Origin: Naegleria gruberi
Taxonomy: Eukaryota
Strand: one strand, 5' to 3'
DNA: 64,000 bases
Assembly: GCA_000004985.1 (NCBI GenBank)
Contig: GG738872.1
This document shows, one piece after another, positions 1 to 29,339 of the stretch. Numbering within the stretch: the stretch's first letter is position 1; each line of letters starts with the position of its first letter. The translations under genes were made by a program, and so were the position numbers. The notes under the pieces are model-generated. The model did not search any database. It had not been told where the DNA came from and was given only the letters and a program-made list of their open reading frames with translations.

Positions 1-367
1 ACCCAAACCCAAACCCAAACCCAAACCCAAACCCAAACCCAAACCCAAACCCAAACCCAAACCCAAACCCAAACCCAAACCCAAACCCAAACCCAAACCC
101 AAACCCAAACCCAAACCCAAACCCAAACCCAAACCCAAACCCAAACCCAAACCCAAACCCAAACCCAAACCCAAACCCAAACCCAAACCCAAACCCAAAC
201 CCAAACCCAAACCCAAACCCAAACCCAAACCCAAACCCAAACCCAAACCCAAACCCAAACCCAAACCCAAACCCAAACCCAAACCCAAACCCAAACCCAA
301 ACCCAAACCCAAACCCAAACCCAAACCCAAACCCAAACCCAAACCCAAACCCAAACCCAAACCCAAA
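1..367. repeat. Terminal telomeric repeat array (CCCAAA)n, about 61 perfect units; G-strand TTTGGG runs 5'->3' toward the left end. The window starts inside the array.
   Basis: Read directly: a perfect hexamer ACCCAA repeated without interruption from base 1 to about 367. Confidence 0.95.
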
Positions 368-474
368 AACCCAAACCTAAAAACCCAAACCCAAACCCAA
401 ACCTAAAAACCCAAACCTAAAAACCCAAACCTAAAAACCCAAACCTAAAAACCCAAACCTAAAAACCTAAAAAA
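368..474. repeat. Subtelomeric degenerate telomere-variant repeats (about CCCAAACCTAAAAA x5-6, also CCCAAAAA)
   Basis: Read directly: CCCAAA units alternate with CCTAAAAA variants and then end abruptly at TATTTAAG. Confidence 0.85.
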
Positions 475-1168
475 TATTTAAGTCCAGACCCAATGTTTCA
501 AAGTTCAAACCCTAGCCCAATTTATTGATTGTTATATCATTCGATTGTAAATGATGAGTAGAACAATGTATTATATTTAGTTTTTCAATTTATAAAATAT
601 TAACTTTGTAAATAATGTAAGATTAAAAATTTGTAAAATGAAACCATAGGAAGAATGATAATTTCAAAATCCTTTAGTGAGATTATATAGTAAATATCAT
701 CATTAACAACATTTATAATCACTTTCATATCAAATTTCAAAAGTTCAAGTCTGTAGATATAAAAGTATTGAGTGAAAAGGGAAGTAGTGAGGTACAATAG
801 GTCAACTATAACTTTTGAGTTTCTCATCAAAACATATTAAATCCTGACATGAAAATGTTCCATTTGATTAGTAAACATCGAATATCAAATTTATTTTAAC
901 TTTCATATTTAAAGATTTCTTCCCTCAATCACACATATGGTCAACTTGTATGAAAAGGTGGAAATCTTGAAAAAGGACCACCTATTGAAACTTTACCATC
1001 ATGATGTAGATGGTCTATAATGATGTACAATTCAATTTCATATCATAAGAATCAGAAATGGTACCATGGGAATGTAAATGTTGATTTTATAAAGTTGACT
1101 TTAAGGAAAGACAAGTCAGACCAACTCTATCAAATATATCACTTCAATCAATAAATTATATATGAAAA

Positions 1169-4100
1169 NNNNNNNNNNNNNNNNNNNNNNNNNNNNNNNN
1201 NNNNNNNNNNNNNNNNNNNNNNNNNNNNNNNNNNNNNNNNNNNNNNNNNNNNNNNNNNNNNNNNNNNNNNNNNNNNNNNNNNNNNNNNNNNNNNNNNNNN
1301 NNNNNNNNNNNNNNNNNNNNNNNNNNNNNNNNNNNNNNNNNNNNNNNNNNNNNNNNNNNNNNNNNNNNNNNNNNNNNNNNNNNNNNNNNNNNNNNNNNNN
1401 NNNNNNNNNNNNNNNNNNNNNNNNNNNNNNNNNNNNNNNNNNNNNNNNNNNNNNNNNNNNNNNNNNNNNNNNNNNNNNNNNNNNNNNNNNNNNNNNNNNN
1501 NNNNNNNNNNNNNNNNNNNNNNNNNNNNNNNNNNNNNNNNNNNNNNNNNNNNNNNNNNNNNNNNNNNNNNNNNNNNNNNNNNNNNNNNNNNNNNNNNNNN
1601 NNNNNNNNNNNNNNNNNNNNNNNNNNNNNNNNNNNNNNNNNNNNNNNNNNNNNNNNNNNNNNNNNNNNNNNNNNNNNNNNNNNNNNNNNNNNNNNNNNNN
1701 NNNNNNNNNNNNNNNNNNNNNNNNNNNNNNNNNNNNNNNNNNNNNNNNNNNNNNNNNNNNNNNNNNNNNNNNNNNNNNNNNNNNNNNNNNNNNNNNNNNN
1801 NNNNNNNNNNNNNNNNNNNNNNNNNNNNNNNNNNNNNNNNNNNNNNNNNNNNNNNNNNNNNNNNNNNNNNNNNNNNNNNNNNNNNNNNNNNNNNNNNNNN
1901 NNNNNNNNNNNNNNNNNNNNNNNNNNNNNNNNNNNNNNNNNNNNNNNNNNNNNNNNNNNNNNNNNNNNNNNNNNNNNNNNNNNNNNNNNNNNNNNNNNNN
2001 NNNNNNNNNNNNNNNNNNNNNNNNNNNNNNNNNNNNNNNNNNNNNNNNNNNNNNNNNNNNNNNNNNNNNNNNNNNNNNNNNNNNNNNNNNNNNNNNNNNN
2101 NNNNNNNNNNNNNNNNNNNNNNNNNNNNNNNNNNNNNNNNNNNNNNNNNNNNNNNNNNNNNNNNNNNNNNNNNNNNNNNNNNNNNNNNNNNNNNNNNNNN
2201 NNNNNNNNNNNNNNNNNNNNNNNNNNNNNNNNNNNNNNNNNNNNNNNNNNNNNNNNNNNNNNNNNNNNNNNNNNNNNNNNNNNNNNNNNNNNNNNNNNNN
2301 NNNNNNNNNNNNNNNNNNNNNNNNNNNNNNNNNNNNNNNNNNNNNNNNNNNNNNNNNNNNNNNNNNNNNNNNNNNNNNNNNNNNNNNNNNNNNNNNNNNN
2401 NNNNNNNNNNNNNNNNNNNNNNNNNNNNNNNNNNNNNNNNNNNNNNNNNNNNNNNNNNNNNNNNNNNNNNNNNNNNNNNNNNNNNNNNNNNNNNNNNNNN
2501 NNNNNNNNNNNNNNNNNNNNNNNNNNNNNNNNNNNNNNNNNNNNNNNNNNNNNNNNNNNNNNNNNNNNNNNNNNNNNNNNNNNNNNNNNNNNNNNNNNNN
2601 NNNNNNNNNNNNNNNNNNNNNNNNNNNNNNNNNNNNNNNNNNNNNNNNNNNNNNNNNNNNNNNNNNNNNNNNNNNNNNNNNNNNNNNNNNNNNNNNNNNN
2701 NNNNNNNNNNNNNNNNNNNNNNNNNNNNNNNNNNNNNNNNNNNNNNNNNNNNNNNNNNNNNNNNNNNNNNNNNNNNNNNNNNNNNNNNNNNNNNNNNNNN
2801 NNNNNNNNNNNNNNNNNNNNNNNNNNNNNNNNNNNNNNNNNNNNNNNNNNNNNNNNNNNNNNNNNNNNNNNNNNNNNNNNNNNNNNNNNNNNNNNNNNNN
2901 NNNNNNNNNNNNNNNNNNNNNNNNNNNNNNNNNNNNNNNNNNNNNNNNNNNNNNNNNNNNNNNNNNNNNNNNNNNNNNNNNNNNNNNNNNNNNNNNNNNN
3001 NNNNNNNNNNNNNNNNNNNNNNNNNNNNNNNNNNNNNNNNNNNNNNNNNNNNNNNNNNNNNNNNNNNNNNNNNNNNNNNNNNNNNNNNNNNNNNNNNNNN
3101 NNNNNNNNNNNNNNNNNNNNNNNNNNNNNNNNNNNNNNNNNNNNNNNNNNNNNNNNNNNNNNNNNNNNNNNNNNNNNNNNNNNNNNNNNNNNNNNNNNNN
3201 NNNNNNNNNNNNNNNNNNNNNNNNNNNNNNNNNNNNNNNNNNNNNNNNNNNNNNNNNNNNNNNNNNNNNNNNNNNNNNNNNNNNNNNNNNNNNNNNNNNN
3301 NNNNNNNNNNNNNNNNNNNNNNNNNNNNNNNNNNNNNNNNNNNNNNNNNNNNNNNNNNNNNNNNNNNNNNNNNNNNNNNNNNNNNNNNNNNNNNNNNNNN
3401 NNNNNNNNNNNNNNNNNNNNNNNNNNNNNNNNNNNNNNNNNNNNNNNNNNNNNNNNNNNNNNNNNNNNNNNNNNNNNNNNNNNNNNNNNNNNNNNNNNNN
3501 NNNNNNNNNNNNNNNNNNNNNNNNNNNNNNNNNNNNNNNNNNNNNNNNNNNNNNNNNNNNNNNNNNNNNNNNNNNNNNNNNNNNNNNNNNNNNNNNNNNN
3601 NNNNNNNNNNNNNNNNNNNNNNNNNNNNNNNNNNNNNNNNNNNNNNNNNNNNNNNNNNNNNNNNNNNNNNNNNNNNNNNNNNNNNNNNNNNNNNNNNNNN
3701 NNNNNNNNNNNNNNNNNNNNNNNNNNNNNNNNNNNNNNNNNNNNNNNNNNNNNNNNNNNNNNNNNNNNNNNNNNNNNNNNNNNNNNNNNNNNNNNNNNNN
3801 NNNNNNNNNNNNNNNNNNNNNNNNNNNNNNNNNNNNNNNNNNNNNNNNNNNNNNNNNNNNNNNNNNNNNNNNNNNNNNNNNNNNNNNNNNNNNNNNNNNN
3901 NNNNNNNNNNNNNNNNNNNNNNNNNNNNNNNNNNNNNNNNNNNNNNNNNNNNNNNNNNNNNNNNNNNNNNNNNNNNNNNNNNNNNNNNNNNNNNNNNNNN
4001 NNNNNNNNNNNNNNNNNNNNNNNNNNNNNNNNNNNNNNNNNNNNNNNNNNNNNNNNNNNNNNNNNNNNNNNNNNNNNNNNNNNNNNNNNNNNNNNNNNNN

Positions 4101-5508
4101 NNNNNNNNNNNNNNNNNNNNNNNNNNNNNNNNNNNNNNNNNNNNNNNNNNNNNNNNNNNNNNNNNNNNNNNNNNNNNNNNNNNNNNNNNNNNNNNNNNNN
4201 NNNNNNNNNNNNNNNNNNNNNNNNNNNNNNNNNNNNNNNNNNNNNNNNNNNNNNNNNNNNNNNNNNNNNNNNNNNNNNNNNNNNNNNNNNNNNNNNNNNN
4301 NNNNNNNNNNNNNNNNNNNNNNNNNNNNNNNNNNNNNNNNNNNNNNNNNNNNNNNNNNNNNNNNNNNNNNNNNNNNNNNNNNNNNNNNNNNNNNNNNNNN
4401 NNNNNNNNNNNNNNNNNNNNNNNNNNNNNNNNNNNNNNNNNNNNNNNNNNNNNNNNNNNNNNNNNNNNNNNNNNNNNNNNNNNNNNNNNNNNNNNNNNNN
4501 NNNNNNNNNNNNNNNNNNNNNNNNNNNNNNNNNNNNNNNNNNNNNNNNNNNNNNNNNNNNNNNNNNNNNNNNNNNNNNNNNNNNNNNNNNNNNNNNNNNN
4601 NNNNNNNNNNNNNNNNNNNNNNNNNNNNNNNNNNNNNNNNNNNNNNNNNNNNNNNNNNNNNNNNNNNNNNNNNNNNNNNNNNNNNNNNNNNNNNNNNNNN
4701 NNNNNNNNNNNNNNNNNNNNNNNNNNNNNNNNNNNNNNNNNNNNNNNNNNNNNNNNNNNNNNNNNNNNNNNNNNNNNNNNNNNNNNNNNNNNNNNNNNNN
4801 NNNNNNNNNNNNNNNNNNNNNNNNNNNNNNNNNNNNNNNNNNNNNNNNNNNNNNNNNNNNNNNNNNNNNNNNNNNNNNNNNNNNNNNNNNNNNNNNNNNN
4901 NNNNNNNNNNNNNNNNNNNNNNNNNNNNNNNNNNNNNNNNNNNNNNNNNNNNNNNNNNNNNNNNNNNNNNNNNNNNNNNNNNNNNNNNNNNNNNNNNNNN
5001 NNNNNNNNNNNNNNNNNNNNNNNNNNNNNNNNNNNNNNNNNNNNNNNNNNNNNNNNNNNNNNNNNNNNNNNNNNNNNNNNNNNNNNNNNNNNNNNNNNNN
5101 NNNNNNNNNNNNNNNNNNNNNNNNNNNNNNNNNNNNNNNNNNNNNNNNNNNNNNNNNNNNNNNNNNNNNNNNNNNNNNNNNNNNNNNNNNNNNNNNNNNN
5201 NNNNNNNNNNNNNNNNNNNNNNNNNNNNNNNNNNNNNNNNNNNNNNNNNNNNNNNNNNNNNNNNNNNNNNNNNNNNNNNNNNNNNNNNNNNNNNNNNNNN
5301 NNNNNNNNNNNNNNNNNNNNNNNNNNNNNNNNNNNNNNNNNNNNNNNNNNNNNNNNNNNNNNNNNNNNNNNNNNNNNNNNNNNNNNNNNNNNNNNNNNNN
5401 NNNNNNNNNNNNNNNNNNNNNNNNNNNNNNNNNNNNNNNNNNNNNNNNNNNNNNNNNNNNNNNNNNNNNNNNNNNNNNNNNNNNNNNNNNNNNNNNNNNN
5501 NNNNNNNN
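1169..5508. other. Assembly gap (run of N, about 4.3 kb)
   Basis: Continuous n characters. ORF-track entries 1148..5923(-) and 1162..5517(+) are artefacts of translating N. Confidence 0.99.
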
Positions 5509-5872
5509 ACTTTCTAATTTCTCTCAAAGCAACAGTACCTGGCTTATATCTATGTGGCTTTTTAGGAGTACGTGTCTTGCTAATAGTTGATGGTTGTTTT
5601 ATAGCTTTTCTTGGTGCTTTGCCTCCAGTTGATTTTCTTGTTGTTTTTCTTCTTGCTAAAATAGCAGCTTCGGAAGTATTTTTACTTTTTCTAGTATTTC
5701 CTTCGGCTAAATCGGAAGTATTGGAAGAAGAAGGAACATCTGCAGATGAAAAATTTGCAACCACATCAGAAGCGACAGTAGATGAAGAGTTTGTGGTATC
5801 AGATACCATTGAATCATCAGTAGTTTCAGTAATAGAAGAATGAGAAGTAGTATTTCCAGTGATGAGAGTCAT
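5509..5872 (-). CDS. Histone H3 variant with an about 73-aa Ser/Thr/Asp-rich N-terminal extension. It is partial: the histone-fold region is lost in the gap.
   Basis: - Start codon: a true ATG at 5872 (MTLITGNTT...).
- After the extension, the sequence reads [21 protein letters not shown]...[17 protein letters not shown].
- This matches the canonical H3 tail and alphaN region: [18 protein letters not shown]...[19 protein letters not shown].
- The frame stays open into the N run at 5509. Confidence 0.75.
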
Positions 5873-5998
5873 TTTTTTAATTTTGAAAAGGTTATTCGGA
5901 GCATCAATAATTTGTACTCTCACAAAATAACTCTTTCAAATTTTGACCATCTAAAATAATTTCTAAAAAATATTAACCAACCGACAGAACTCTCAACA

Positions 5999-6478
5999 AT
6001 GCCAAAACGATCAGTTACTAAAATCATACCAATGTATGAAAGTATCTACGATTTACCAGTTGTCATGGTTTGTATGAAAGGAGAGAAAATCTCCGATGAA
6101 GCTTTTATTAATCATTTGTATTTTCATTCGAGTGTCTTTTATCCAACCGTTAATGATTGTACCAAAACCATCAACACAATCATGCACGAACTTGAAAATG
6201 TTATAGCAATTAATGATGATTTTATTATTGATGAAATTCCAAATCCTATGGATTTAAAAGAAAAGCTCCAACTCTCAAGAAAAGCAAATAGATTAGCTAT
6301 TTATTCATTAAAGACAATGATTATGATGGAATCAAAGATGTTTAATGCTTTGTTTCAAAAGAAACCATCTATGAATCAATTAAACAAGGCTCACAAATTC
6401 CAAAATGTAATTCATTTGGAAATTGATGAAGAAGATGTTTCCGAAAATGAAATGACCATTTGGAAAAATAAAGAATAA
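5999..6478 (+). CDS. Hypothetical 159-aa protein with no recognisable domain
   Basis: ATG-initiated ORF between the H3 variant and the recombinase ORF. No motif recognised. Could be part of the same element or spurious. Confidence 0.25.
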   Translation: MPKRSVTKIIPMYESIYDLPVVMVCMKGEKISDEAFINHLYFHSSVFYPTVNDCTKTINTIMHELENVIAINDDFIIDEIPNPMDLKEKLQLSRKANRLAIYSLKTMIMMESKMFNALFQKKPSMNQLNKAHKFQNVIHLEIDEEDVSENEMTIWKNKE

Positions 6479-6537
6479 TTTTATTAATATAAATTAATAT
6501 CCTTAATAAATATTGTTTATTAATTAATTATATAAAA

Positions 6538-9303
6538 TTAATCATCAATATAGTCATCTAAAGGGTATATATAATCATTAAAGTAACGTAAAACCATACT
6601 TTCATCAACAAAGTTATCGAAAGGTTCCCATGTTGATTGTTTGTAACCATAACCTTGCCATTTTACAAGGTAATTGAAATATTTTGGTAATAAAAGATCA
6701 GAATCAATATCTATATCTTTTTCGATTAATTGATGGTCTAAAATCTCATCAACTACAAATATATCATCTGTTTGAGTATCTTGTAAATCTGAAGAATCAG
6801 CTGAAGAATCATCTGACATATCTGCCCATCTCCTTTTGGTACCTCCTTTCTTTTCCTTCTTGGATCTAAAAGAGGAACATTTCTTATATTCTTCTGGTGT
6901 CATTTTAAATTCAGAGAAGAACTTTTGCAAATCTTCAGGATTTAATGGGATGGTTACACCATCAAACCAATGATGATCTTTCAAATAACGATTCACATGT
7001 GAAACCAAATCTTCAAAAAACACATCCCTTTCTGAACTATTCCAATAACTATTTAGTAATATCTTGAATTTTGTAATAACCCGACTTTTTACCTTCCAAT
7101 AATTTTTGTTGAATTGTTTTTTATCTTCCTCTGTAACAATTTCAAGATCTGAAAATGCCATAAGAGATCTATAGATAGATCCCATGAAATTAGTAGTTTC
7201 TGTTAATGCAACCGTCTTTCCAAAAAGAAACTTCAGTTTCGGTATGTTGTCAATTAGCCAAGTCTTGCATTTGAAATCAACTCTTGTTTGTGGAAGTGAT
7301 TTTCTTTGAGAAATTATATTCTTGTTTGTTTGAGGAATATTCATAAATCCAACGCTCTCATCAATACATTCATCTCTCATAAATAGATATTTGAAAGGTA
7401 CGCAACCATTAGGATTGGATTTTCTAGATGTTATATATGAAGATGGTGACAATTCAACATTCAAAATATTATGAAAAGTAGTTTCCAATGTATCAGATGA
7501 TGAAAATCCATAATCTTGAATAGATCCTTGAACATATTGAAATATCATCTGCCGATGATGTACAGTATCTGCAAGGTACCTCTCTGGTAGTTGGTTGAAT
7601 ATTTTGAAAGCATATCTTTCATATGATTTAATTGAGCGCTTACTGACATGTCCTAGCATGAATGAAATTGCACTCTTTGTTTGCTCTTGCACAATATGGT
7701 TTCGAATAATATCAACCAACATGTTTTCTACCACAATACCAGATCTACCAGCACGTGCACAATACATGACATTTAAAATTCTCTTGGTGATATTTCTAAT
7801 ATATTCTGATATTCCATTTGAACAACATTGAGATTTAGATTGTTTTTTGAAAAATAAAAATTCTTTCACTACATCATTCTTAAATGTGAATTTACCATCT
7901 GAAATGAATTTTTCCCAATTAGAATTAAAGTTGGCAAATATCTCAGAACGAGTGTACCACAAATAATATAATAAAATGAATGATGAACAGAGAGTATGAT
8001 TCTGCTTTCCAAATATTGACACATTCCTTGATGAAGTGGTTGTACGCTTGTCTTTCTTCACTTCCATAGAAGTGTGAATAACGAACCATTTATCATCATT
8101 AAGATAATATTCAACTTTTTGAAATTTTACATCTTCAAGTCTTATCCAAATAAGAGAATCTCCTCTCATTCCAGTAGCTCGAATAACATGCATGATGGCA
8201 ACATCAGTAAGATCTTCAACTTTTGTCAAATCAGCAGCATAGGTAACTTTGTAGACCTCAGAAAACATCATTGGAGCAACTTTGTACACTTCACACCCAT
8301 ATAATCGAATCAAGCCCATTGTTGTTTGTTGAATAGCTTCCTTAAATAGAATGACTGGACTTTCACCGAATTTAGGATGTCTTTTTATGAATTTGTTCAA
8401 TCCATACACAAAGCACCCTTTCATTGTCTTATGCGAAAAACCACTAGCTCGACTGAATATCAAAAATCTAAGGTAGGTTATCTTTTCAATAGGGAATGGT
8501 TTCGGTTGAATCTTTGACCACGCTGTTTTGCCTTTGATTTGTTCTTTCCAAAACGACACATAGACAATTCCTGAATAAGCTTCAAATTGTCTAGTATTGA
8601 TATGCTTATGAAGCTTCATTACAGTGACAACCTTGGAAATATCTTCATCCAAATCATCAACAATTGTTAAATCTAAATTTGAATCAATTTCCTCATTGAA
8701 CTCTGGTCGAATAACAGCAGATTTCTTTTTTTTTGGAGTATAGCTTGCCACAAGGAGATCTTCAACATCATAATCAATTAAGCTAGCTTCCAAATTGTCA
8801 TTGATCTCTTCTAACATCTTTTCCTTCTCTTTCGGTGATGATGATTCTACATTACGAATAAGGGATTCTTTTCGAATTTCTTCATCAGTCATTTCGGGAG
8901 GGTTATCCATCTTGTTCATTCTTTCAATCTCTTGTAAAATATCTGACACAACATCCTTTTGATGCATATAAGGCTGTATCATTGTGTCTAAATCTTTAAT
9001 TGATTGAGCAACACCAATAAAATTGTTATTATGATTTAATAATGCCATTATGTGATGAAATGACTGCATAGTAAACTCAGCATCCAAACAATAAGTAACT
9101 CCGTTATAATCAACATTGATTGATTTGGAGCCAATATACTCCTTGTTGTTTAGCAAATCATTCATTTGATAAACTCGCGATGATGAGTTCTTTGATACTA
9201 AGGCGCTCTCATCCTGTTGAGTTGGTGGGAGTTCACCGGTTGGTGAATGGTTGTTGTTGGTGCAATCACTTAAATGAGAGCTTGTAGATGATGATGGAAG
9301 CAT
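6538..9303 (-). CDS. Tyrosine-recombinase-like protein (Crypton/DIRS-type YR core) with a C-terminal chromodomain, 921 aa
   Basis: - Start codon: a true ATG at 9303.
- YR box I-like segment: HVIRATGMRGDSLIWIRLEDV.
- YR box II-like segment: YCARAGRSGIVVENMLVDIIRNH...LGHVSKRSIKSYERY (LGH ... catalytic Tyr pattern).
- C-terminal segment DIFVVDEILDHQLIEK...YFNYLVKWQGYGYKQSTWEPFDNF...LRYF fits the chromodomain consensus (YxVExIL...YLVKWKGY...TWEP.N).
- No RT/RNaseH motifs are present in this ORF. Confidence 0.65.
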   Translation of the reverse strand: MLPSSSTSSHLSDCTNNNHSPTGELPPTQQDESALVSKNSSSRVYQMNDLLNNKEYIGSKSINVDYNGVTYCLDAEFTMQSFHHIMALLNHNNNFIGVAQSIKDLDTMIQPYMHQKDVVSDILQEIERMNKMDNPPEMTDEEIRKESLIRNVESSSPKEKEKMLEEINDNLEASLIDYDVEDLLVASYTPKKKKSAVIRPEFNEEIDSNLDLTIVDDLDEDISKVVTVMKLHKHINTRQFEAYSGIVYVSFWKEQIKGKTAWSKIQPKPFPIEKITYLRFLIFSRASGFSHKTMKGCFVYGLNKFIKRHPKFGESPVILFKEAIQQTTMGLIRLYGCEVYKVAPMMFSEVYKVTYAADLTKVEDLTDVAIMHVIRATGMRGDSLIWIRLEDVKFQKVEYYLNDDKWFVIHTSMEVKKDKRTTTSSRNVSIFGKQNHTLCSSFILLYYLWYTRSEIFANFNSNWEKFISDGKFTFKNDVVKEFLFFKKQSKSQCCSNGISEYIRNITKRILNVMYCARAGRSGIVVENMLVDIIRNHIVQEQTKSAISFMLGHVSKRSIKSYERYAFKIFNQLPERYLADTVHHRQMIFQYVQGSIQDYGFSSSDTLETTFHNILNVELSPSSYITSRKSNPNGCVPFKYLFMRDECIDESVGFMNIPQTNKNIISQRKSLPQTRVDFKCKTWLIDNIPKLKFLFGKTVALTETTNFMGSIYRSLMAFSDLEIVTEEDKKQFNKNYWKVKSRVITKFKILLNSYWNSSERDVFFEDLVSHVNRYLKDHHWFDGVTIPLNPEDLQKFFSEFKMTPEEYKKCSSFRSKKEKKGGTKRRWADMSDDSSADSSDLQDTQTDDIFVVDEILDHQLIEKDIDIDSDLLLPKYFNYLVKWQGYGYKQSTWEPFDNFVDESMVLRYFNDYIYPLDDYIDD

Positions 9304-9393
9304 TTTTTTGAGAGAAAATCCCCGAAATTTCCATTAAGGCAACTTTACAAAGTGAGCCCTCTTTGAGTATTCATAAATATAGGCAATTATCGT

Positions 9394-9420
9394 GCAAGAA
9401 GGCCTTTGTGGCCTTCCTGC
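9394..9420. repeat. Imperfect palindrome / hairpin: GCAAGAAGGCC - TTTGT - GGCCTTCCTGC (10 of 11 positions pair)
   Basis: Read directly. Sits about 90-120 bp upstream of the ATG of the recombinase ORF (minus strand). Confidence 0.6.
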
Positions 9421-9705
9421 ATCAATATCTCATCCAAGTAATAATATTTATATATATAAAATTGGCAAACAGCATTCAATTTATTCAAATATTGATGTAG
9501 ACAGGTAAAAATGTCAATAATGTCATTTTTTTTACCTTACTGAAAAATGACCTGTTTTTGAAAAGCTCCCATTCAATGAGTTCAGTGAATTAGAACTGAA
9601 TTTCTGTACGATAATGTAGTAATTGAAGTCTATTACGATATCTGAAAAATTCAATATCCCAATATTTAAACAACAAATCTGGGTAATGTAATTAGCCTGC
9701 AGTCT

Positions 9706-9731
9706 CCCAAACCCAAACCCAAACCCAAACC
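9706..9731. repeat. Interstitial telomeric repeat, (CCCAAA)x4.3, same orientation as the terminal array
   Basis: Read directly: cccaaacccaaacccaaacccaaacc. It is immediately followed, in frame, by homology to the receptor cyclase-like family. Confidence 0.9.
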
Positions 9732-10238
9732 TATTGCTCGCCTATTAGAAGAACACTATGGAACTAGTTTGAATATTAAATGCAATACCAAGTATTTAAT
9801 TTCATCAGAAACTGATTACATTTCAATTTACAGATTATATACAGATACTGATGTTGATTGGTAAGTAACCTAAACGAGTTAGATATAATAATTGTTCAAA
9901 ATAGGTTGTTTGTGTTAGCAGTTCCTCAATGGAATTACATTAGGTCAATTGTTATTGCTGTAATTTGTGCTATTGTTGGTGCCACATTCATTGTCACAAC
10001 AGGTGTAGCCATTTCCATCTTCATTTCAGTCAGATTAGTGAAACCATTTTACAATTTGATTGATTTATTCGAAAGTGTCTCTCATATGGATTTGGATAAT
10101 TTAGAAATTCATGATTCCAAATTTACAGAAGTGAAACAGTTACAAACTCATTTCAAAACCATGACAGACAGAATCAAACTTTACAGAGCTTTCATACCAT
10201 CACATTTACAAGTAATTTTGTCTCATTCATTTTATTAA
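9732..10238 (+). pseudogene. Truncated relic of a receptor-type cyclase-homology family gene: only the juxtamembrane/TM/linker portion, in 2 exons (9732..9860 and 9905..10238, with a 44-nt GTAAGT...TAG intron)
   Basis: - The fragment translates as ...LEEHYGTSLNIKCNTKYLISSETDYISIYRLYTDTDVDW|LFVLAVPQWNYIRS...VKPFYNLIDLFESVSHMDLD...RIKLYRAFIPSHLQ.
- It matches the paralog at 14687..15973: LDHYSNDWTKITCNEMQVLERSGQYISIYRLCTSSKIDWILVLSVPQWNY...VKPFYNLIELFESVANMDLD...RIKLYKSFIPAHLL.
- It also matches the paralog at 53385..55883.
- The N-terminal ectodomain exons are missing, and there is no room downstream for the cyclase domain. Confidence 0.6.
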
Positions 10239-10547
10239 TGTTACTAAGCTCTCTCTCCATATTTGAATTGCCAGCTTGTAGTATTAAGCGGAGAGAATCT
10301 CCCGTTTAGAATAAGAAACGGCCTGAATCCCGTTCATCCCGTTGCCCGTCTCACCGTTTATTTGTATCAACTCATACTGCTACATATTTCATATTGCATT
10401 GATTCAAATCCAATTTCAGAACAAAAACGAATGTATTTGATAGAATTTGTAAAGAGTTCTTGTTATTTTGGGGTTAGTCTTTGATTCCTCTGTATTCAAA
10501 ATGCACCATTGAGAGAAAACGGAAGCTTGTGTAATAAAAGGTTCATT

Positions 10548-13500
10548 CTACCAATTACTGTTGTTTATTAAGNNNNNNNNNNNNNNNNNNNNNNNNNNNN
10601 NNNNNNNNNNNNNNNNNNNNNNNNNNNNNNNNNNNNNNNNNNNNNNNNNNNNNNNNNNNNNNNNNNNNNNNNNNNNNNNNNNNNNNNNNNNNNNNNNNNN
10701 NNNNNNNNNNNNNNNNNNNNNNNNNNNNNNNNNNNNNNNNNNNNNNNNNNNNNNNNNNNNNNNNNNNNNNNNNNNNNNNNNNNNNNNNNNNNNNNNNNNN
10801 NNNNNNNCATTATTTGTAATGACAGAGGTAATGACTAATGATATCAAAGTAATACAAGCAGGTAATAAAAGTGTTGGCATGTTCATCAATCTCAAAATCT
10901 CAGTCAATGCCTCAGCAACTCCACTTTGAGTAATTGCTGCCGCAATTCCAAAAGATGCTCCAACCAATGTCACTAATCTCCATTCCACACAATCAACTGC
11001 TCTCGTTGGTGTTATCAATCCAAATGCAACGACTGCACAGAATGTCACAAGTGTACATTGAACCATTGGAAATCCAGCAATGGCGCATCCAATCATTGCT
11101 AAAAAGAATGGGAAAATCCAATGTTCCCACCACCACAAATCTAAAATGATTTTAGTGAAGGGAATTCTGAATAGAAATGGTTTTTGTTTGAATTGGTTGT
11201 AATCTGGTGAGATTTCGTTAAATCTTGTAATGAGATAGAAATCCTTTGAATTGTCATGATTATTATGGTAGAAAACACTTTTACCCAAAATTAGAATAGT
11301 ATCACCACAATATACTGTTTTGCAATTGACGTGTGAATCCTTATCGTTGGTTTCTTTAGTATCAATTGAGGAGGAACCAACTTGTCTGATGGCTAATACT
11401 TTGACTTGATATCTTCTTTCGAATTCCAAATAAGTTTCTCCTAAACATGGATTTGAAGCTCCAATAACAACCTGGAAGAATTCAGGTTCATTTTCTTGAA
11501 TTTCAGATTGATTAGTTTTAGATTTTTCATTGGAGAGAGCTGCATCTCCATAATTCTTCTTGATATTATGATGTAATTGATTAGTGACTGGATTTTCAGC
11601 TTGTGGTGATGTTGTTGGTGAATCAATTAAATGGTCTTGAGATGTTGAAGAAGCCACGCAACTGCTCTGTGAAATTCTTCCTTCTTCCATTGGAGATTCA
11701 ACACTCAAAAAGGAAGTAGTGCTTTGACCTGTTGCCATTTTAGGTTCTTCTTTTTGGTTGACTGATTCAGAACTTTCAAAAGTTGATTTTTCAATTTCAG
11801 AACCATCATACACAAGTGAATGCAAACGTAAAATTAATTGAGGAGCTCCTTGGAAAACCAAAATATCAGAACTTTCCAATTTTAGATCTAAAGGAACTGG
11901 TGAAATTTTTTCAAGCCCAGCAACAGTTTCGTTTGTTGCTGGAATAATTGTATTCGAAGAAGTAGAGCTATTTGAAGAGTTTGTGGATTGCTCTGGACTT
12001 TCCTTAGGTTCTTCTACCTTAATTTCAATAGATTCTCCATTGGAAATTACATTTGGTTCGCTTGAAGTTGTTGGTTGACTTGAAGATTGTACACTGCTCA
12101 ATTCAACTTGATTGGTTGATTTCTTTTCTCTCAAAATTTCAATCAAATCCAAGTTGCCTATTCCCAACTCTGACATGGCTTTGACTTTGGTCTTTCCATT
12201 CAAAGTTTCAAATAATGTTTTACCTTTCGAATACTTTGGTTGAGAAGCCAAATATTCCATCTTGACAATGGTAACGAAAGTTTCCGAATGTTCTCTCACA
12301 ACTTCTCTTGCACGTTCCTTTTTACTTTTATGAGCAAAAGTAACCTTTGAAGCATTAAACTTTGAAGTCACTCCTTCATTAGGAACAATCCACAATGTAT
12401 AAGTGCAACAATAAATAATTGTAATGAAACATAAAATGGCGCCAACATAAACAAACTCATAAAAGGATAAAGGAGTGTAACCATATTGAGTATAGATACC
12501 ATTTGCAACAATACTTGCTGAAGTTCCAATATATGTCAACAATCCACCTCCATTTGTTGCGAATAAAAGTGACATGAGAAATTTGGTATGTGAAAGTTTG
12601 TGTGTCCTTGCCCATTCCATAATGATAGGAATTCCTGTGGCCACAACTGGAGTATTCGATACAAATGCACTAAAAATGGTAAAAACAAAACAAATTCTTA
12701 AAGTTGGTGGTATGAGTGAAATAAAATTGAGAAATTTGTTTTTGGAATTTTTGAATTTCAATGGGGAACCAAATAAAAGTCTGGCAAATTTCAAAACTAG
12801 GGTATTTTCACTTAATGGTTTGACGATTGGGAAGAGGAGAGCAACGATGAGAGTACCAGTGTTGGAAAAACCACTTAAGGCATCTGTAACACTGACAATA
12901 CCTGCCAGATTAAAAATGACAAGTGTCATAACCACAATAAAGTAAGGTCTCCAAAGAGAAACAACCAGACAGACTAGCATTAGGATGACCATGCATAGTA
13001 CGAACCATAATTTCCATGAATTCCATGAAAATGCAACTACAGGTGACGTGGATCCACAAATATTATTGATGGATGAGCTTGTTAACACTGTATCTATGCT
13101 CACAGATTGATTCAGCTGTTGAATGGTAGTAAAGTTGTAGTTTAGATTCTTAGAAGGAACTTGTGCTTGTAAATCGTTGAAAGCATTCACCAATTCTTGA
13201 CTAAACATTCCACTTTCAATCTTGTTTCTAATATCAGCAAGGTCGAGTTTGACTAGAAACCATTGAATTGCATAGGAATTTGTAAACAACTCTGGAATAT
13301 CCAAGTATTTGGTAGAATTCATGAATGCATTCTTACTTGTCGTTCCATTTATATGAAAAACCATCTTTTCATATGTCAAATCCATTCCACTTTTTGTTTG
13401 AATGACAGAAATTGGATATTCTTGAAGGAGAGAAGTTCTGGAAGGAAGAAAGAGTGAATTTTGATATTTTGTGGAAAGTAAGTTATTATGGATGATTCTA

Positions 13501-13964
13501 AAATAGTAAAAACTTAGTGTTTCGTTCGTTTCGTGCAAACTTTCGACATGTTCATCAAATAGAAACTTCCAAGAAATTGTTCCTTGTCCGTGTTCATAAC
13601 TCAATGAAACATAACTAATGGTAGTGCTTGCATTTATGGTAGAACTCTTATAATTCGTATCGTCATTCGAATAGTAAACACTCTCGGATATATTTTTGGT
13701 AAACTCGGTGGAAAATTGATAAATTTGACCATTTACAAATGCAGATGAAGTAGAAATACAATTATCCAATCGAATAGGATGATTTAGCAAGTTTGCAAGT
13801 GATAAAATGATGAAAATGCTTGAAATGCAAGCAAATACGAAACTGTGGAGTTTCATCTTTTTTTCTTTCGAATTGTTAGATGAGAAGGAAGAGATTCGTC
13901 CTGTTGAAATGCAAAAGGGCACAACTGTGGCCATGCTGGACTCGTTTTCTATACTATTTGGCAT
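10548..13964 (-). CDS. Anion permease of the CitMHS / ArsB-NhaD (SLC13-like) superfamily. Two permease halves are separated by a cytoplasmic loop with two TrkA-C (RCK_C) domains, and there is an about 330-aa N-terminal ectodomain after a signal anchor.
   Basis: - Start codon: a true ATG at 13964.
- First multi-TM block: CMVILMLVCLV...GIPIIMEWARTHKLSHTKF...ATNGGGLLTYIGTSASIV.
- TrkA-C-like segment: FFQVVIGASNPCLGETYLEFERRYQVKVLAIRQ...CGDTILILGKS.
- Second TM block: WWEHWIFPFFLAMIGCAIAG...VTLVGASFGIAAAITQSGVAEAL.
- The C-terminus is interrupted by the N gap, so the 3' end is uncertain. Confidence 0.6.
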   Translation of the reverse strand: MPNSIENESSMATVVPFCISTGRISSFSSNNSKEKKMKLHSFVFACISSIFIILSLANLLNHPIRLDNCISTSSAFVNGQIYQFSTEFTKNISESVYYSNDDTNYKSSTINASTTISYVSLSYEHGQGTISWKFLFDEHVESLHETNETLSFYYFRIIHNNLLSTKYQNSLFLPSRTSLLQEYPISVIQTKSGMDLTYEKMVFHINGTTSKNAFMNSTKYLDIPELFTNSYAIQWFLVKLDLADIRNKIESGMFSQELVNAFNDLQAQVPSKNLNYNFTTIQQLNQSVSIDTVLTSSSINNICGSTSPVVAFSWNSWKLWFVLCMVILMLVCLVVSLWRPYFIVVMTLVIFNLAGIVSVTDALSGFSNTGTLIVALLFPIVKPLSENTLVLKFARLLFGSPLKFKNSKNKFLNFISLIPPTLRICFVFTIFSAFVSNTPVVATGIPIIMEWARTHKLSHTKFLMSLLFATNGGGLLTYIGTSASIVANGIYTQYGYTPLSFYEFVYVGAILCFITIIYCCTYTLWIVPNEGVTSKFNASKVTFAHKSKKERAREVVREHSETFVTIVKMEYLASQPKYSKGKTLFETLNGKTKVKAMSELGIGNLDLIEILREKKSTNQVELSSVQSSSQPTTSSEPNVISNGESIEIKVEEPKESPEQSTNSSNSSTSSNTIIPATNETVAGLEKISPVPLDLKLESSDILVFQGAPQLILRLHSLVYDGSEIEKSTFESSESVNQKEEPKMATGQSTTSFLSVESPMEEGRISQSSCVASSTSQDHLIDSPTTSPQAENPVTNQLHHNIKKNYGDAALSNEKSKTNQSEIQENEPEFFQVVIGASNPCLGETYLEFERRYQVKVLAIRQVGSSSIDTKETNDKDSHVNCKTVYCGDTILILGKSVFYHNNHDNSKDFYLITRFNEISPDYNQFKQKPFLFRIPFTKIILDLWWWEHWIFPFFLAMIGCAIAGFPMVQCTLVTFCAVVAFGLITPTRAVDCVEWRLVTLVGASFGIAAAITQSGVAEALTEILRLMNMPTLLLPACITLISLVITSVITNNXXXXXXXXXXXXXXXXXXXXXXXXXXXXXXXXXXXXXXXXXXXXXXXXXXXXXXXXXXXXXXXXXXXXXXXXXXXXXXXLINNSNW
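10573..10807. other. Assembly gap (235 N)
   Basis: Run of n. It interrupts the 3' end of the transporter gene. Confidence 0.99.
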
Positions 13965-14686: not shown

Positions 14687-17128
14687 TCAACACATTCGAA
14701 ATTTAACACAAAAAGTTATTGGAAAGGTCAAAAACAGAAAAGGACTTACCTCATCGTCGTTCACTTTCAAAGAAGATCCCAATTCATAGATATTTGTTAG
14801 CACGCCAGTATTTGGAGTCTTGTATTCGTCAGTTTTTCCATTGAGCGAGTTTAAATTAGTTTCGTCTAGTAATTCTTTGGAATCTACATATCTGATTTGG
14901 AACAATTGTTCACATTTTTCCTTAATCTTCTCACTTACTACAATACTAACATTCAGTTGAATTGCAATTTGAGTCAATTGATCCAAATTTTGTTTGGCGC
15001 TCGAAATTATTGTAAAGTTTTTCAATTCGTTCGTTCCAATATTTCCACAATAGGAAGATTGTGATAAAACTGCAATTTTAAATGACATTAAATCCAATAA
15101 TTGTGAATTCTTCTTGAAACTGTTTAATAAGGTTGAGGCAGCGACAACTCCTTTTTCTTCATGATTCGTCTGATTATTCGAAGAGTTAAACGAAATGGTG
15201 ATTGATTCATTTTCAAAGTTTCCAACGTTTCCTGTCAAACTTCTACTCACACTATTAATCTGTTCAAAAATATCTGACATTAGCTCAATAGTTTCGTTTG
15301 GATTCATATTTTGCAACCATTCAGTAAATCCATTAAAATGAATCTGGACGAAAGTTACCTTCTTCTGTTCCATATACAAGGAAAACTTGCTTCTATCATT
15401 CTTATATACTTTCCTTGAGGATCTTGCTTTATGAGAAATTCCTTTACTGGAATTAGAACTTCCCACTGATTGAGTTTCCTGACTTGACATGTTGTGCGAA
15501 GATCCTCCGTAGACTTTAGTTCTGGAATTCTTTCGGAAAGATTCGTCTACTTCACTGTCTGATTCTTGGATACCATCTACATTTTCAATTTCTGAAAGTA
15601 AGTGAGCTGGAATAAAACTCTTGTAAAGTTTGATTCGGTTGACCATGGAAATGAAATGTCCTTGTAATTGTTTCACTTCTGAGAATGAACTTGGAATAAT
15701 GTGAAGTTGATCCAAATCCATATTAGCAACACTTTCGAATAACTCTATCAAATTATAAAACGGCTTGACAACTTTTAAGGAAACAACAACTCCCAAGACT
15801 AAACCAACCGAAATGATGAGAACACTACCAATCAATGAGCAGATAATTGCAAAAATTGTCGATCCTAAATAATTCCATTGAGGGACACTCAACACTAATA
15901 TCCAATCAATTTTTGAGCTAGTACACAATCTATATATGGAAATGTATTGTCCACTACGTTCGAGAACTTGCATTTCATTGCAAGTTATTTTAGTCCAATC
16001 ATTCGAATAATGATCAAGAATAGCTTGAGAAATTGCGTTGATTTTGGTATCTGAAACATCGGTTGGTGTTTTTCTATCTAATGATCCATCTGATTTCCAA
16101 TCTGAAATTGTAACTTCCTCTCTGTCAACTATTTCCCATAAACTTTACAATAAAAATTTATGTAACTTACCTGCAATCAAATAAGCAGTTTCAGTTTCCA
16201 CAATAAATCCTAAAGATCCAGTAATGGATGCAATTCTTTCTTTCAAAAAGTCTGAAATCGATGACACTGTCAAATCATTTGCTTGATAATAGTGAAAATT
16301 GTGTCCGTTAGGAAGAGGAAGTTTCTTATTTACGACACAATTCATGGAAGTGATGAATGTGTATTGAGGCATTGAAATGTCAGCATAACTCAATGTAAAA
16401 ACTTGTTGACCTGGATTAGCATCACAGACCTCAACGAGATAGCTCACATCGAATGGCTTGTTGGTTTCGTCTGGATTAGAATTTCTAACACACTGTTCGT
16501 GATTGGTAATGTTGTCGCAATAATAGATTAATTGAGCTGTTGATGTGATATTAAAAGTGGCCAAATAATCTCCCCACTCAATTGATCCAAAGCATGTTTT
16601 ATCTGTACCTCCCACATATGAGGAAATTGTAATTCCCTTCAAATGTTTTTGAGATGACTAATGGCAATTTGAAGGTATTTCATTAATTTTCATGAATTTT
16701 TCATATTTTGAATATGAGAATAGGAATCAATAAACTTTGCTTACCTTGTAGCCTGCAAACATAATCCTCTCCAAATAATCGAAATTTCCATACGAATAAT
16801 CATCAGTTGCCAATTGTTGTTTAATGGCCTCATTCAATACATTAACTTCTTTGAGTGTTTGCTCTGCATATTTGACAATGGTTGAAAACTCTTCGTCTCT
16901 CACTGTTGATGATAAACTGACAACTGTTGGAGAAAAACTTGCCAACCAAATGGCAGATAGGATCAAAACACTGAGGAAGAGTAAACCAGATACCATGACA
17001 ATCATACAAAATTTGATGGAAGTTCCCTTAGTTGAGCCTCCTGTGTAGGAACTTGTTTCTTGATTCTTATCCATTATGGCTTGTTTATCCTCTTGTGAGG
17101 TTGGTGTTACCTTGTTCTTTAATTTCAT
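14687..17128 (-). CDS. Receptor-type cyclase-homology (pseudo-cyclase) protein, about 760 aa, 3 exons. Exon 1 is 16745..17128. Exon 2 is 16171..16636. Exon 3 is 14690..16128, or 14690..16089 with an alternative in-frame acceptor.
   Basis: - Start codon: ATG at 17128.
- Intron 1 donor: AAG|GTAAGC. Intron 1 acceptor: tttgaag|GGAATT.
- Intron 2 donor: GCAG|GTAAGT. Intron 2 acceptor: gggaaatag|TTGAC.
- Architecture: N-terminal cytosolic stretch, signal-anchor TM, ectodomain, second TM (ILVLSVPQWNY...), HAMP-like linker, then a class III nucleotidyl-cyclase-like domain.
- Cyclase-like motifs: VTFVQIHFNGFTEW ... GNVGNFENESITISF ... FKIAVLSQSSYCGNIGTNELKNFTIISSAKQNL.
- The canonical metal-binding Asp residues are replaced: D->H/Q in the first motif, and IGD->FEN in the second.
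- Paralogous to the gene at 53385..55883. Confidence 0.6.
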
Positions 17129-17533: not shown

Positions 17534-20500
17534 TTAATCTGATTCGCTGTAATATGGAGAGGCATAGGATGGTGTTGATCTAGCACCAGTCTTGTAGGCA
17601 AATCTAGAGTTATTGCTGTGAGTGAAAGGACGATTGGATCTGATAACATCTCTTTCTTGATTTCCAATAAGAGTATTATTCATAATGTCCATTCCAGAAC
17701 GAGCTTGGGCAGATGGTCTTTTAATGGTTGGTCTTTGGACACCAGAGTTCATTGATCCATAAACCACAAAGCCCAAAACTGCAATAATAAGAGAAAGGAT
17801 GATATAAGTCAAATAACCAGCAGATTCATCTTCGGTATTGTCAGTGTGGACGTGTTCTCTGACTGGTTGACGGGCTTCATTGGATACAAATCTAACAGTA
17901 ATAGGAGTAGTAGTGAGAGTGTATGACTTGGCATTTTCACCAAAGTTGACCTTGACAGACAAGTTAATATCTTGTGTTGACAAGTGCTTCAATTCACCGT
18001 TAAGGAAAGAGTCACGTCTTGGTTTGATTAAACATTCATACTTATCACCAACTTTTTCAGTTCCAACAACTTCCAACCAGCTTTGAGTAGATTCACATTG
18101 TACATTATAATTACGTCTTACTCTGGAATCGTGTGGGAATTTGACTTCTTGACTTGTGTTATCCAAAAGATGGAGTGGAATACGGGTTGGTACTTGTTTC
18201 ACTGGATCAACACCAGAACTAAGTTCAATACTTGAAAGGGAAATCTTAGCTTGAGCAATTCTGACAATGTTAACTTGGATTTGGGTGGTAGTTCTTCCTG
18301 ATTTAAGAGTAACAGTTGCTGAACCAACCTTGTGAGCAGTTCCTACACCGTTCAAATCAACACTAATAACACTAGAATCAGAGCTTTCCCATTTACCAGC
18401 CTTTTCAGAAACAAAAGTAACAGAGTCACCAACGTGAAGTTTGGCAGTTGAGGAGAGTGTGTCAACAACACTTGAAACAACGCTAATTCTGCAATAATAT
18501 GGTTGCTTCAATTCTGGAGCACTCAATTCAACAGTTGTATTACCAAGAGAATTAGAGTAGACAACAATGGCTTCCTTTTGAGCATCAACCTTTACACTAA
18601 CAATATCATGAATATTCATACGGACGTTAATATCAATACCACTAACAGAAGCAAACTTTTCACCGCGAATACCAAGAGCAGAGAGTGGAATTTCAAACTC
18701 ACTACCAATTGGGACTTGGAAGTCATAATCAAATGATTTAGTTTGGAGTTCACTCAAAGACATTGCCAAATAGTGTGGATTTTGAACAGCAACCTTTTGA
18801 GCAACAGTTTGACCGGTGGAAATTTCTTCAACAATAACAACAGAGATACCCTCAGATTCACGAGTAACAATATCACCGTTCTTACTGACAGCAATAAGAT
18901 TATCATATTCATCAGTCTTGGCAATAGTGTATTTTTGAACTGATAAATTATCCTTATTAGTTCTCAAACGGAAAGTAGCAGATCTTGGAGCAAGAATGAG
19001 ATCCTTGTGTGGGAAATCTAATAATTTCAACTTGTCATCAACTTGAATATCAGACTTGGTTGTATGGTGCCAGCTTGAAAGTTGTGGATGTTGGAATGAG
19101 GCACTAGCTGAGATTTGAGTCTTACCAATCTTAGAGCCAGTAATAAAAACAGAGTGACCAGTTTGGCTTTGTGGATAATTGATAATTGAAACTTCTTGTT
19201 CAGCAGAAGAGACAGAGACTTGGAAGAATGGAGATTGCATAAAGAGAGGAGACAAGAGTTGCTTATTATCATAGAGACCATAAACAGGTACAGGGATATG
19301 ATGTCCTTCAAAAACAAAGAGTGGTTGTGGAAGTTTGATACCTACAAGTTGAACAACACGAACTGGAACAGTCTTTCTAGCATAAACAACTGAATTCTTG
19401 ATGAGACTAATCTTTTCGACAACAAGTAATTGTTCACCATAAGTAACACCAGTAACAATTCCTCTAGCATCAACAGAGGCAAACTTGTGATCTTCCTTAA
19501 ACTTGAAAATTGTAGCAATACTTGGTGTTTCAATTGGTCCTCCAGTAACCTTAACTTGGAATTTAGCACCTGGAATCAAGACAAGCTCTGGTGGATTAAC
19601 TCTCATTGGTTCATAAACATTGACCATAAATGGAACACTATAAACTCTTCTTCCATCACTATTAAGAACACTAGCAACAAGTTTAACAACACCAACTCTT
19701 CTACCAGTCAAAACATATTCATCTGGATTAGATTCAGATTGTTTGAGTGAGATTGTGTTTGGAGTGTCAACTTCAATAGAAGTTTGCATGGCATAGTGTT
19801 GAGAAGCTGGGAAATTGGCACCAGTTTCATCGGAAACGCTCAATTTAACAGTAACATAATTGTCAACTTCGACAAATCTTTCACCATCTAAACCAACATG
19901 GTGAGCATCAGCAACTTTAACAAAACTACTAGCAGCTGGGCTGAGTTTGGAGAAGGTATCAAAAACATCAACTCTAACATAACCTGGAACAAGACCAACA
20001 AGTTCAGCAGTTGAACCCTTTGGAGCCAATGTTGCTACGTCAGTATTGTTATGAGAAAAGTCATATCTACCAGAACCACCTGTAGCTTGGAGAGTGAGAC
20101 TAACTTTACGATTTCTGAATAAAAGATAACTAGCAGGATTGAGGTAAATATTTGGAGCAATTCTGAGTTCAATTTCATCCTCTAATGGTTTAGAGAATGC
20201 TGCAATAGCTGAATTCATGATAGAATAAGAGACGTACTTCTTGACTTCATCCTTATTATATCCAATAATTTGTCCTCTCAAGTTTACAGAACCTTCCTTT
20301 TCATAAATATCCAACAATCTGTGTCCTGGATATACTTCCTTATTGGAAATTTTGGCAATATCATGGTGACTGAGTTCCCATTCATCTTGTAAAGTGGAGG
20401 TGGTAACGAAGAGATTTTCTTCACTGTCATAGGCGTTCATTACAGCTGGAACAGTTTGATTATTTCTAACACTGTAAACTCTAATAATGTGAGAGGAAAT

Positions 20501-29219: not shown

Positions 29220-29339
29220 GGCTACGGCCATATCACGATGAATGCACCTCATCCCGTCCGATTTGAGAAGTTAAGCATCGTCGAGCCACATCAGTACTGA
29301 GGTTGGAGACAACTTGGGAACCTGTGGTGCTGTAGTCTT
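29220..29339 (+). rRNA. 5S ribosomal RNA (solitary copy)
   Basis: - Sequence: GGCTACGGCCATATCACGATGAATGCACCTCATCCCGTCCGATTTGAGAAGTTAAGCATCG...GGTTGGAGACAACTTGGGAACCTGTGGTGCTGTAGTCTT.
- It matches the 5S consensus blocks: CTACGGCCATACCAC, CCCGTCCGATCTG, AAGTTAAGC and GGGAGACC...GGGAA...GGTGCTGTAGGCTT.
- Helix I pairs 5' GGCTACGGC with 3' GCTGTAGTC.
- Length is about 120 nt. Confidence 0.85.

Follow-up and report, generated by a model that had tools for sequence, protein, structure and literature searches.

The telomeric end of a 413-kb (413,107-bp) scaffold of Naegleria gruberi carries an open reading frame that starts with an acidic, Ser/Thr-rich segment, continues into the tail of histone H3 and runs into an assembly gap, which raises the question of what kind of H3 gene is cut there. 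The stretch analysed, hereafter the window, is this scaffold end and comprises 64,000 nucleotides of contig GG738872.1 (assembly GCA_000004985.1). Four of its ORFs match N. gruberi proteins of this scaffold exactly. An earlier note on the window had described an H3 variant with a 73-aa N-terminal extension, and had considered a replication-independent or lineage-specific H3 variant, a centromeric H3 (CenH3) with an H3-like tail, or a histone gene carried on a putative element. The distal features of the window were the following.

1..470, plus strand: terminal telomere array (CCCAAA)n, perfect over 2-367, then degenerate CCTAAAAA/CCCAAA units to about 470
1169..5508: assembly gap of 4340 N, in which the predicted histone fold, stop codon and 3' end of the H3-variant gene are hidden
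5509..5872, minus strand: 5' part of the H3-variant gene, with the ATG, 121 codons and the first base of codon 122
5510..5656, minus strand: H3 tail and alphaN helix, codons 73-121, with 68% identity to N. gruberi canonical H3
5657..5872, minus strand: N-terminal extension, codons 1-72, coding by codon score, acidic and Ser/Thr-rich by composition

The terminal array corresponds to TTTGGG, which has been published as candidate telomere repeat for N. gruberi (PMC3622300). About 0.7 kb of unique sequence separates the array from the N run, with no similarity between 440-1168 and the rest of the window, and the sequence is continuous from position 5509. With telomere repeats at the start of the window, the H3 gene is correctly placed at 5 kb from the end of the chromosome, provided that the gap size set by the scaffolder holds.

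The H3-variant ORF lies on the minus strand, as had been claimed, with its ATG at 5872-5870 and 121 complete codons down to 5510, from where the frame is open into the gap. Base 5509, a T, opens codon 122 and borders directly on the N run. The nearest upstream in-frame stop was found 17 codons before the ATG at 5872, with no further ATG between the two. Human H3 matched the window with an E-value of 1.8e-12 (tblastn), and an exhaustive phmmer search with the fragment against 1.84e9 representative proteins returned 1461 H3 matches at E<=1e-3. The Pfam Histone model (PF00125) gave E=9e-4 and 19.9 bits, against a gathering cutoff of 26.4, with only model positions 2-44 of 122 present in the fragment. 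The tail motif K9-K18 was identical at all 11 residues, ARRKTT stood in place of ARTKQTA, and the alphaN helix was identical to that of N. gruberi canonical H3 at 18 of 18 residues. The codon after the alphaN match begins with T, compatible with Tyr or Phe. The description as an H3 variant with an N-terminal extension, cut by the gap, was thus borne out by 121 codons open into the N run and by H3 similarity beyond chance. The fragment probably comprises the 5' portion, between a third and a half, of a genuine protein-coding gene of N. gruberi that has gone unannotated.

Codon statistics, based on a table trained on 14 long ORFs from the window, were used to examine the extension. The extension scored +0.74 bit per codon in frame, above 95% of the true coding windows of the locus, vs -0.8 and -1.1 for the remaining frames of that strand; it is coding. 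Residues 1-73 contained 41% Ser+Thr, nine acidic (D/E) and three basic (K/R) residues, with a pI of 4.1. The acidic, Ser/Thr-rich character given to the extension was therefore retained, but not its length, as 72 residues precede the Ala aligned with A1 of H3. A further scenario held that the completed gene would be canonical H3, the extension being an upstream exon artefact. This was rejected, because no in-frame Met stands beside ARRK, the tail is unlike that of canonical H3, and none of the GT-AG spliced models gave a canonical M-ARRK start, all of them keeping at least 10 residues in front.

The extension had no homologue among 5.8e9 proteins (word-indexed search) or 1.84e9 representatives (exhaustive phmmer), only generic H3 being returned from collections that included the proteins of N. 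gruberi, N. fowleri, N. lovaniensis and Willaertia. Matches that appeared to cover the extension were rejected as canonical H3 with artefactual upstream ORFs or as tandem H3 fusions. The proteomes of other Naegleria yielded no orthologue (phmmer, 1.84e9 representatives), two degenerate DNA patterns designed on variant-specific peptides gave no match in JGI metagenomes, and scans of the IMG/VR viral collection found no second copy. Since no protein in the searched collections contains the fragment or its extension, the H3-variant gene is unannotated and the extension is an orphan.

The known H3 family of N. gruberi comprises canonical H3 in three gene copies (EFC36852, EFC42318, and EFC49702), the tail variant EFC37152, and three genes of the CenpA class, EFC47663, EFC48882, and EFC49963 (van Hooff 2017, Grau-Bove 2022 supplements). 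All five annotated H3-family proteins are encoded on other scaffolds and none overlaps the fragment, which is none of the five, CENP-A1 (EFC49963, XP_002682707.1) included. In the family alignment, the H3 part had 68% identity to canonical H3 EFC36852, 58% to EFC37152, 57% to EFC47663 and 26% to CENP-A1. The 68% identity to canonical H3, the identical last 18 residues and the KQPST motif common to both indicate descent of the H3 part from the H3 of Naegleria itself. KQPST is the motif of canonical H3 in Naegleria and Willaertia, and its 15 nt are identical in the fragment and in the canonical DNA. Judged by its sequence, the fragment is an H3 paralogue of Naegleria descent.

Compared with canonical N. 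gruberi H3, protein change was confined to two places, residues 3-7 and 19-35. The earlier note had stated that K4/Q5/A7 and the neighborhood of K27 were altered, which can now be sharpened to T3R, Q5T and loss of A7 in the first place, and in the second to the absence of nine residues (LASKAARKS, with K23, K27, and S28) and the presence of four extra ones before K36-K37. The canonical protein XP_002669596.1/EFC36852 (three gene copies) has the same 16-residue block around K9-K18 and the same 18-residue alphaN, but lacks the 72-residue extension and retains the K23/K27/S28 segment; at silent sites the two are separated by a pS of about 0.45. Comparison with the organism's canonical H3 genes, which had been proposed as a check, therefore places the fragment closest to Naegleria's own canonical H3, with synonymous-only divergence in the conserved blocks.

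The DNA reference for this comparison was a pair of metagenome contigs (L002 and L003), not from strain NEG-M, whose encoded protein is identical to canonical N. gruberi H3. Over the 36 codons of unchanged residues, the codon alignment with the two contigs showed 11-12 synonymous and no non-synonymous differences (pS 0.43-0.47). If changes fell at random over the sites of these codons, the chance of all being silent would be about 1e-7, a figure that is overstated because the blocks were chosen for conservation; the synonymous-only argument is partly circular for the same reason, the blocks having been picked for identical residues. The heavily diverged silent sites beside untouched K9-K18, K36/K37 and alphaN imply an old duplication whose product has been under H3-like constraint. 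Read with this caution, the pattern still runs counter to neutral decay and argues for an old, selected paralogue over a pseudogene or an annotation artefact. DNA identity to canonical H3 over the last 54 nt of the fragment was 89-91%, which speaks against near-identical canonical fold DNA as the cause of the contig break at 5509. GC3 was 0.14 in the fragment vs 0.36-0.43 in canonical H3 genes, and this AT-rich codon usage suggests that the variant may be expressed at a low level and independently of replication, rather than serving bulk supply in S phase. Of the signature positions of replacement H3 (H3.3 type), residues 31 and 87-90, the surroundings of the first are rearranged in the fragment and the others fall within the gap.

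The same low GC3 could also mark a dead or dying subtelomeric copy, either a pseudogene or a truly truncated fragment, that yields no functional protein. The gene is less than 10 kb from the chromosome end, in a block delimited by an interstitial telomere repeat, it is unannotated, and its extension has neither orthologue nor paralogue in the searched protein collections, all of which would suit decay. Such a copy would not be expected, however, to keep 121 codons intact in a genome of 33% G+C, where even some 90 stop-free codons arise by chance at about 1e-3 (base-composition estimate), nor to show such strong in-frame coding statistics or a complete lack of replacement changes across the H3-defining codons. 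Decay is thus an improbable explanation of the locus, and a selected H3 paralogue is preferred.

Whether this paralogue could be centromeric was considered from the CenpA-class genes. CENP-A1 was localised to nuclear foci, which coincide with CENP-C and are associated with spindle microtubules, and expression of the remaining two CenpA-class genes fell in mitosis or was not detectable (bioRxiv 10.64898/2026.08.18.745565). The CENP-A1 gene is located on a 1.0-Mb scaffold, and its product matched the fragment only weakly, at 11 of 21 residues in alphaN. Like the variant, CENP-A1 has before alphaN a long N-terminal region that is rich in Ser/Thr and bears acidic patches, but it lacks the H3 tail motif. 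EFC47663 (XP_002680407.1, "histone H3, partial"; CenpA or cenH3 according to van Hooff 2017 and Grau-Bove 2022) comes closer, sharing with the variant an H3-like KAPRK[A/S]IKQ tail segment and a GTVALREI alphaN, and as its annotated model has an incomplete N-terminus, an extension is possible there too. It is nevertheless another gene on another scaffold, with 13 of 18 identities in alphaN and 57% overall; its own fold is divergent, with a loop 1 two residues longer, whereas the fold of the variant lies in the gap. When the three CenpA-like sequences were joined as one query, mostly tandem-H3 proteins were returned, and CENP-A1 was recovered.

Long Ser/Thr-rich, acidic N-terminal regions proved usual among the H3 variants of N. 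gruberi, with about 135 residues ahead of alphaN in CENP-A1 and an extension of about 134 residues in the full-length form of the EFC48882 paralogue. As such extensions are the rule among these variants, having one is in itself no sign of a centromeric role. The full-length relative is a 282-aa protein on an ENA contig, at least 90% identical to the partial EFC48882; its additional N-terminal residues and a C-terminal extension imply that the annotated N. gruberi EFC48882 model is badly truncated.

The fragment may then be read as a further, fourth CenH3/CENP-A-like paralogue of N. gruberi, centromeric in a particular life stage, or as a non-mitotic relative of CENP-A. The presence of three CenpA-class genes in the species, two of them down-regulated in mitosis or not detectably expressed, speaks for this reading, as do the long acidic Ser/Thr-rich extensions in this class, which are like that of the fragment. 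H3-like tails also occur there, as EFC47663, assigned to cenH3 in two studies, keeps KAPRKSIKQ where the fragment has KAPRKAIKQ, and a protein of the basidiomycete yeast Dioszegia, named H3-like centromeric protein in one database, keeps the H3-tail motif behind an extension. The fragment, however, retains all 18 canonical residues of alphaN vs 13 in EFC47663, matches CENP-A1 at barely half of the compared alphaN positions, and belongs to a species in which a localised CenH3 is already present. The usual marks of CenH3 are a divergent tail and fold, a lengthened loop 1 and the absence of the conserved alpha1 glutamine (quoted in PMC7052976). Under these a proximal tail that diverges from H3, to the point of not being alignable, would be expected, but the 49 fold-proximal residues of the fragment align at 68%, and it is the distal 72 that are unrelated. 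A CenH3 with an H3-like tail, as entertained in the earlier note, is accordingly the less likely reading, CENP-A1 having already been immunolocalised, lying on another scaffold and being only a weak match; we consider a fourth centromeric paralogue unlikely. The variant is most likely not the centromeric histone, so far as tail and alphaN allow this to be judged.

The genes next to the H3 variant bear on whether it might belong to an element, and the features proximal to it were the following.

5873..5998, no strand: intergenic region of 126 bp between the divergent H3-variant and 159-aa genes, presumed to be a promoter region
5999..6478, plus strand: 159-aa orphan ORF, an exact match to XP_002676322.1, head-to-head with the H3 variant at a distance of 126 bp
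6538..9303, minus strand: 921-aa ORF, an exact match to XP_002676414.1, whose C-terminus holds an HP1-type chromodomain; a further segment weakly resembles tyrosine recombinases
9706..9731, plus strand: interstitial telomere repeat (CCCAAA)4CC, oriented like the terminal array, with 0 matches expected by chance

The 159-aa product had no Pfam match and was not histone-like, and its single-sequence AlphaFold2 model (pLDDT 39) was too poor to use. No divergent H4 partner or other histone gene was found in the window. The 921-aa protein matched the Pfam Chromo domain with E=4.7e-10, and its best PDB profile matches were HP1 chromodomains, and chromodomains only; the aromatic-cage residues (F/W/Y) appeared by eye to be in place. 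Its Phage_integrase match (residues 357-407, Pfam E=0.005) was below the cutoff, hhalign against Cre gave a probability of 0.3%, and the single-sequence AlphaFold2 model of the recombinase-like core (pLDDT 34) was again too poor. Among 5.8e9 proteins the 921-aa protein had a single homologue, with 32% identity, encoded at 1736-4909 (plus strand) of a 7.9-kb ENA metagenome contig (L001). The C-terminus of this homologue is chromodomain-like by alignment, although Pfam found no domain in it. Beside it, at 5989-7083 on the minus strand, L001 encodes a Tet/JBP dioxygenase; among solved structures, its best relatives are 4lt5 and 5cg8, Tet-like enzymes of Naegleria (E about 1e-5). An H3 gene is absent from L001.

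The interstitial repeat is situated 9.7 kb from the chromosome end, about 400 bp beyond the start of the 921-aa gene, and forms the proximal edge of the block with the H3 gene. With telomere repeats on both sides, the H3 gene is contained in a telomere-bracketed subtelomeric block that occupies the distal 9 kb or so. Further inside, two genes in opposite orientation, at 9800-10250 (plus strand, apparently with introns) and 14687-15973 (minus strand), resemble each other closely over the segment VKPFYNLI[DE]LFESV..MDLD.L, and this resemblance suggests an inverted paralogue pair just inside the interstitial telomere repeat. A second assembly gap (10573-10807, 235 N) interrupts a CitMHS-family transporter gene at 10548-13964 (minus strand). 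A large intronless ORF at 17534-22393 (minus strand) encodes a NUP210-like nuclear pore protein with several matches to NUP210 Ig-like domains, and a 5S rRNA gene (29220-29338, plus strand; Rfam RF00001, 105 bits) is located just downstream of a hybrid histidine-kinase gene at 25495-29058.

The bracketed block invites the idea of a mobile or duplicative subtelomeric element at about 470-9705, with the H3 gene as its cargo, that also encodes the recombinase-like chromodomain protein and would insert into telomere repeats or spread between them, an idea compatible with the other readings. The CCCAAA repeats flank the block in one orientation, its G+C content is 31.7% vs 34.5% in the rest of the window, the 921-aa neighbor joins an HP1-type chromodomain to a weak Phage_integrase match, and the only homologue of this neighbor adjoins another chromatin gene, an arrangement on L001 that is suggestive of elements bearing chromatin genes. 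Several copies or recognizable ends, as a Crypton-like element should have, were seen neither among the annotated proteins, where the 921-aa neighbor is single-copy, nor within the window, where terminal repeats or a second copy were not found. Moreover, the recombinase assignment is not significant by Pfam or hhalign, L001 is without an H3 gene, the H3 part is clearly of host descent, and the 4.3-kb gap conceals the distal part of the block. We therefore regard carriage on an element as doubtful. More speculative still, and very improbable in our view, is that the block constitutes a telomere-targeting recombinase element with its own chromatin kit, made up of a K27-less H3 variant with a blocked N-terminus and the HP1-type chromodomain. 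Were it true, such an element would package or mark itself at chromosome ends, and that on L001, beside its Tet/JBP dioxygenase, would be a second example carrying chromatin genes.

Of the classes proposed for this locus, a lineage-specific or replication-independent H3 variant is best supported, as the fragment is nearest to canonical H3 and matches no annotated protein of the family. We favor, as the probable explanation, a functional, non-centromeric, lineage-specific Naegleria H3 variant whose histone fold would lie in the gap, although its subtelomeric position also fits young or decaying gene copies. A Naegleria-type H3 gene would have been duplicated long enough ago to accumulate about 45% silent-site divergence, an acidic Ser/Thr-rich extension of 72 residues would have come to stand ahead of A1, the surroundings of K4 would have been remodelled and the K23-K27-S28 segment lost, while selection may have preserved K9 to K18, K36/K37 and the entire alphaN helix. 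The free amino terminus at A1 of H3 anchors many H3K4 readers. In the variant this terminus would be absent unless the extension is cleaved, with K9/S10, K14, K18, and K36 presumably still available. If the histone fold follows within the gap, the variant may replace H3 in a subset of nucleosomes, where, with the N-terminus blocked and the K27 site missing, a different set of readers and writers would be able to act on the tail.

Naegleria is among the few free-living Discoba used for reconstructing early eukaryotic chromatin and kinetochores. An enlarged H3 family in N. gruberi, with three canonical copies, one tail variant and three CenpA-class genes, was already known; what is new is a further H3 member missed by the published catalogues examined, because an assembly gap interrupts it. 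The variant is of unusual design, in that a near-canonical K9-K18 region and alphaN are combined with the lack of a K27 segment and with an extension that removes the free A1 terminus. If expressed, it would provide a natural experiment on the function of an H3 tail without K27 and a free N-terminus, and would have to be counted in histone proteomics and analyses of CENP-A paralogues in N. gruberi. The practical value of the finding is a correction of the annotation rather than a new principle.

Outside the H3 family of N. gruberi, three known systems can be compared with the locus. The layout of the telomere-bracketed subtelomeric block in the Naegleria window is comparable to that of the Y' elements of yeast. 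The H3V of Trypanosoma brucei, reportedly an H3 variant enriched at telomeres, is likewise a non-centromeric, lineage-specific H3 variant from the Discoba. The telomere link of H3V concerns the location of the protein, whereas in Naegleria only the gene is subtelomeric, and homology beyond the H3 family is not indicated. The H3.7 and H3.8 ("protein X", 21 kDa) of Stylonychia, a spirotrich ciliate, are also H3 paralogues enlarged beyond the normal size (PMC4122937). They belong to an unrelated lineage, are of independent origin and are tied to a nuclear dimorphism that Naegleria lacks, and no sequence similarity was found between the Naegleria extension and the enlarged ciliate H3s (phmmer). 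The resemblance lies in the enlargement of an H3 paralogue, which in Stylonychia, a protist with many H3 variants, serves specialised chromatin (PMC4122937).
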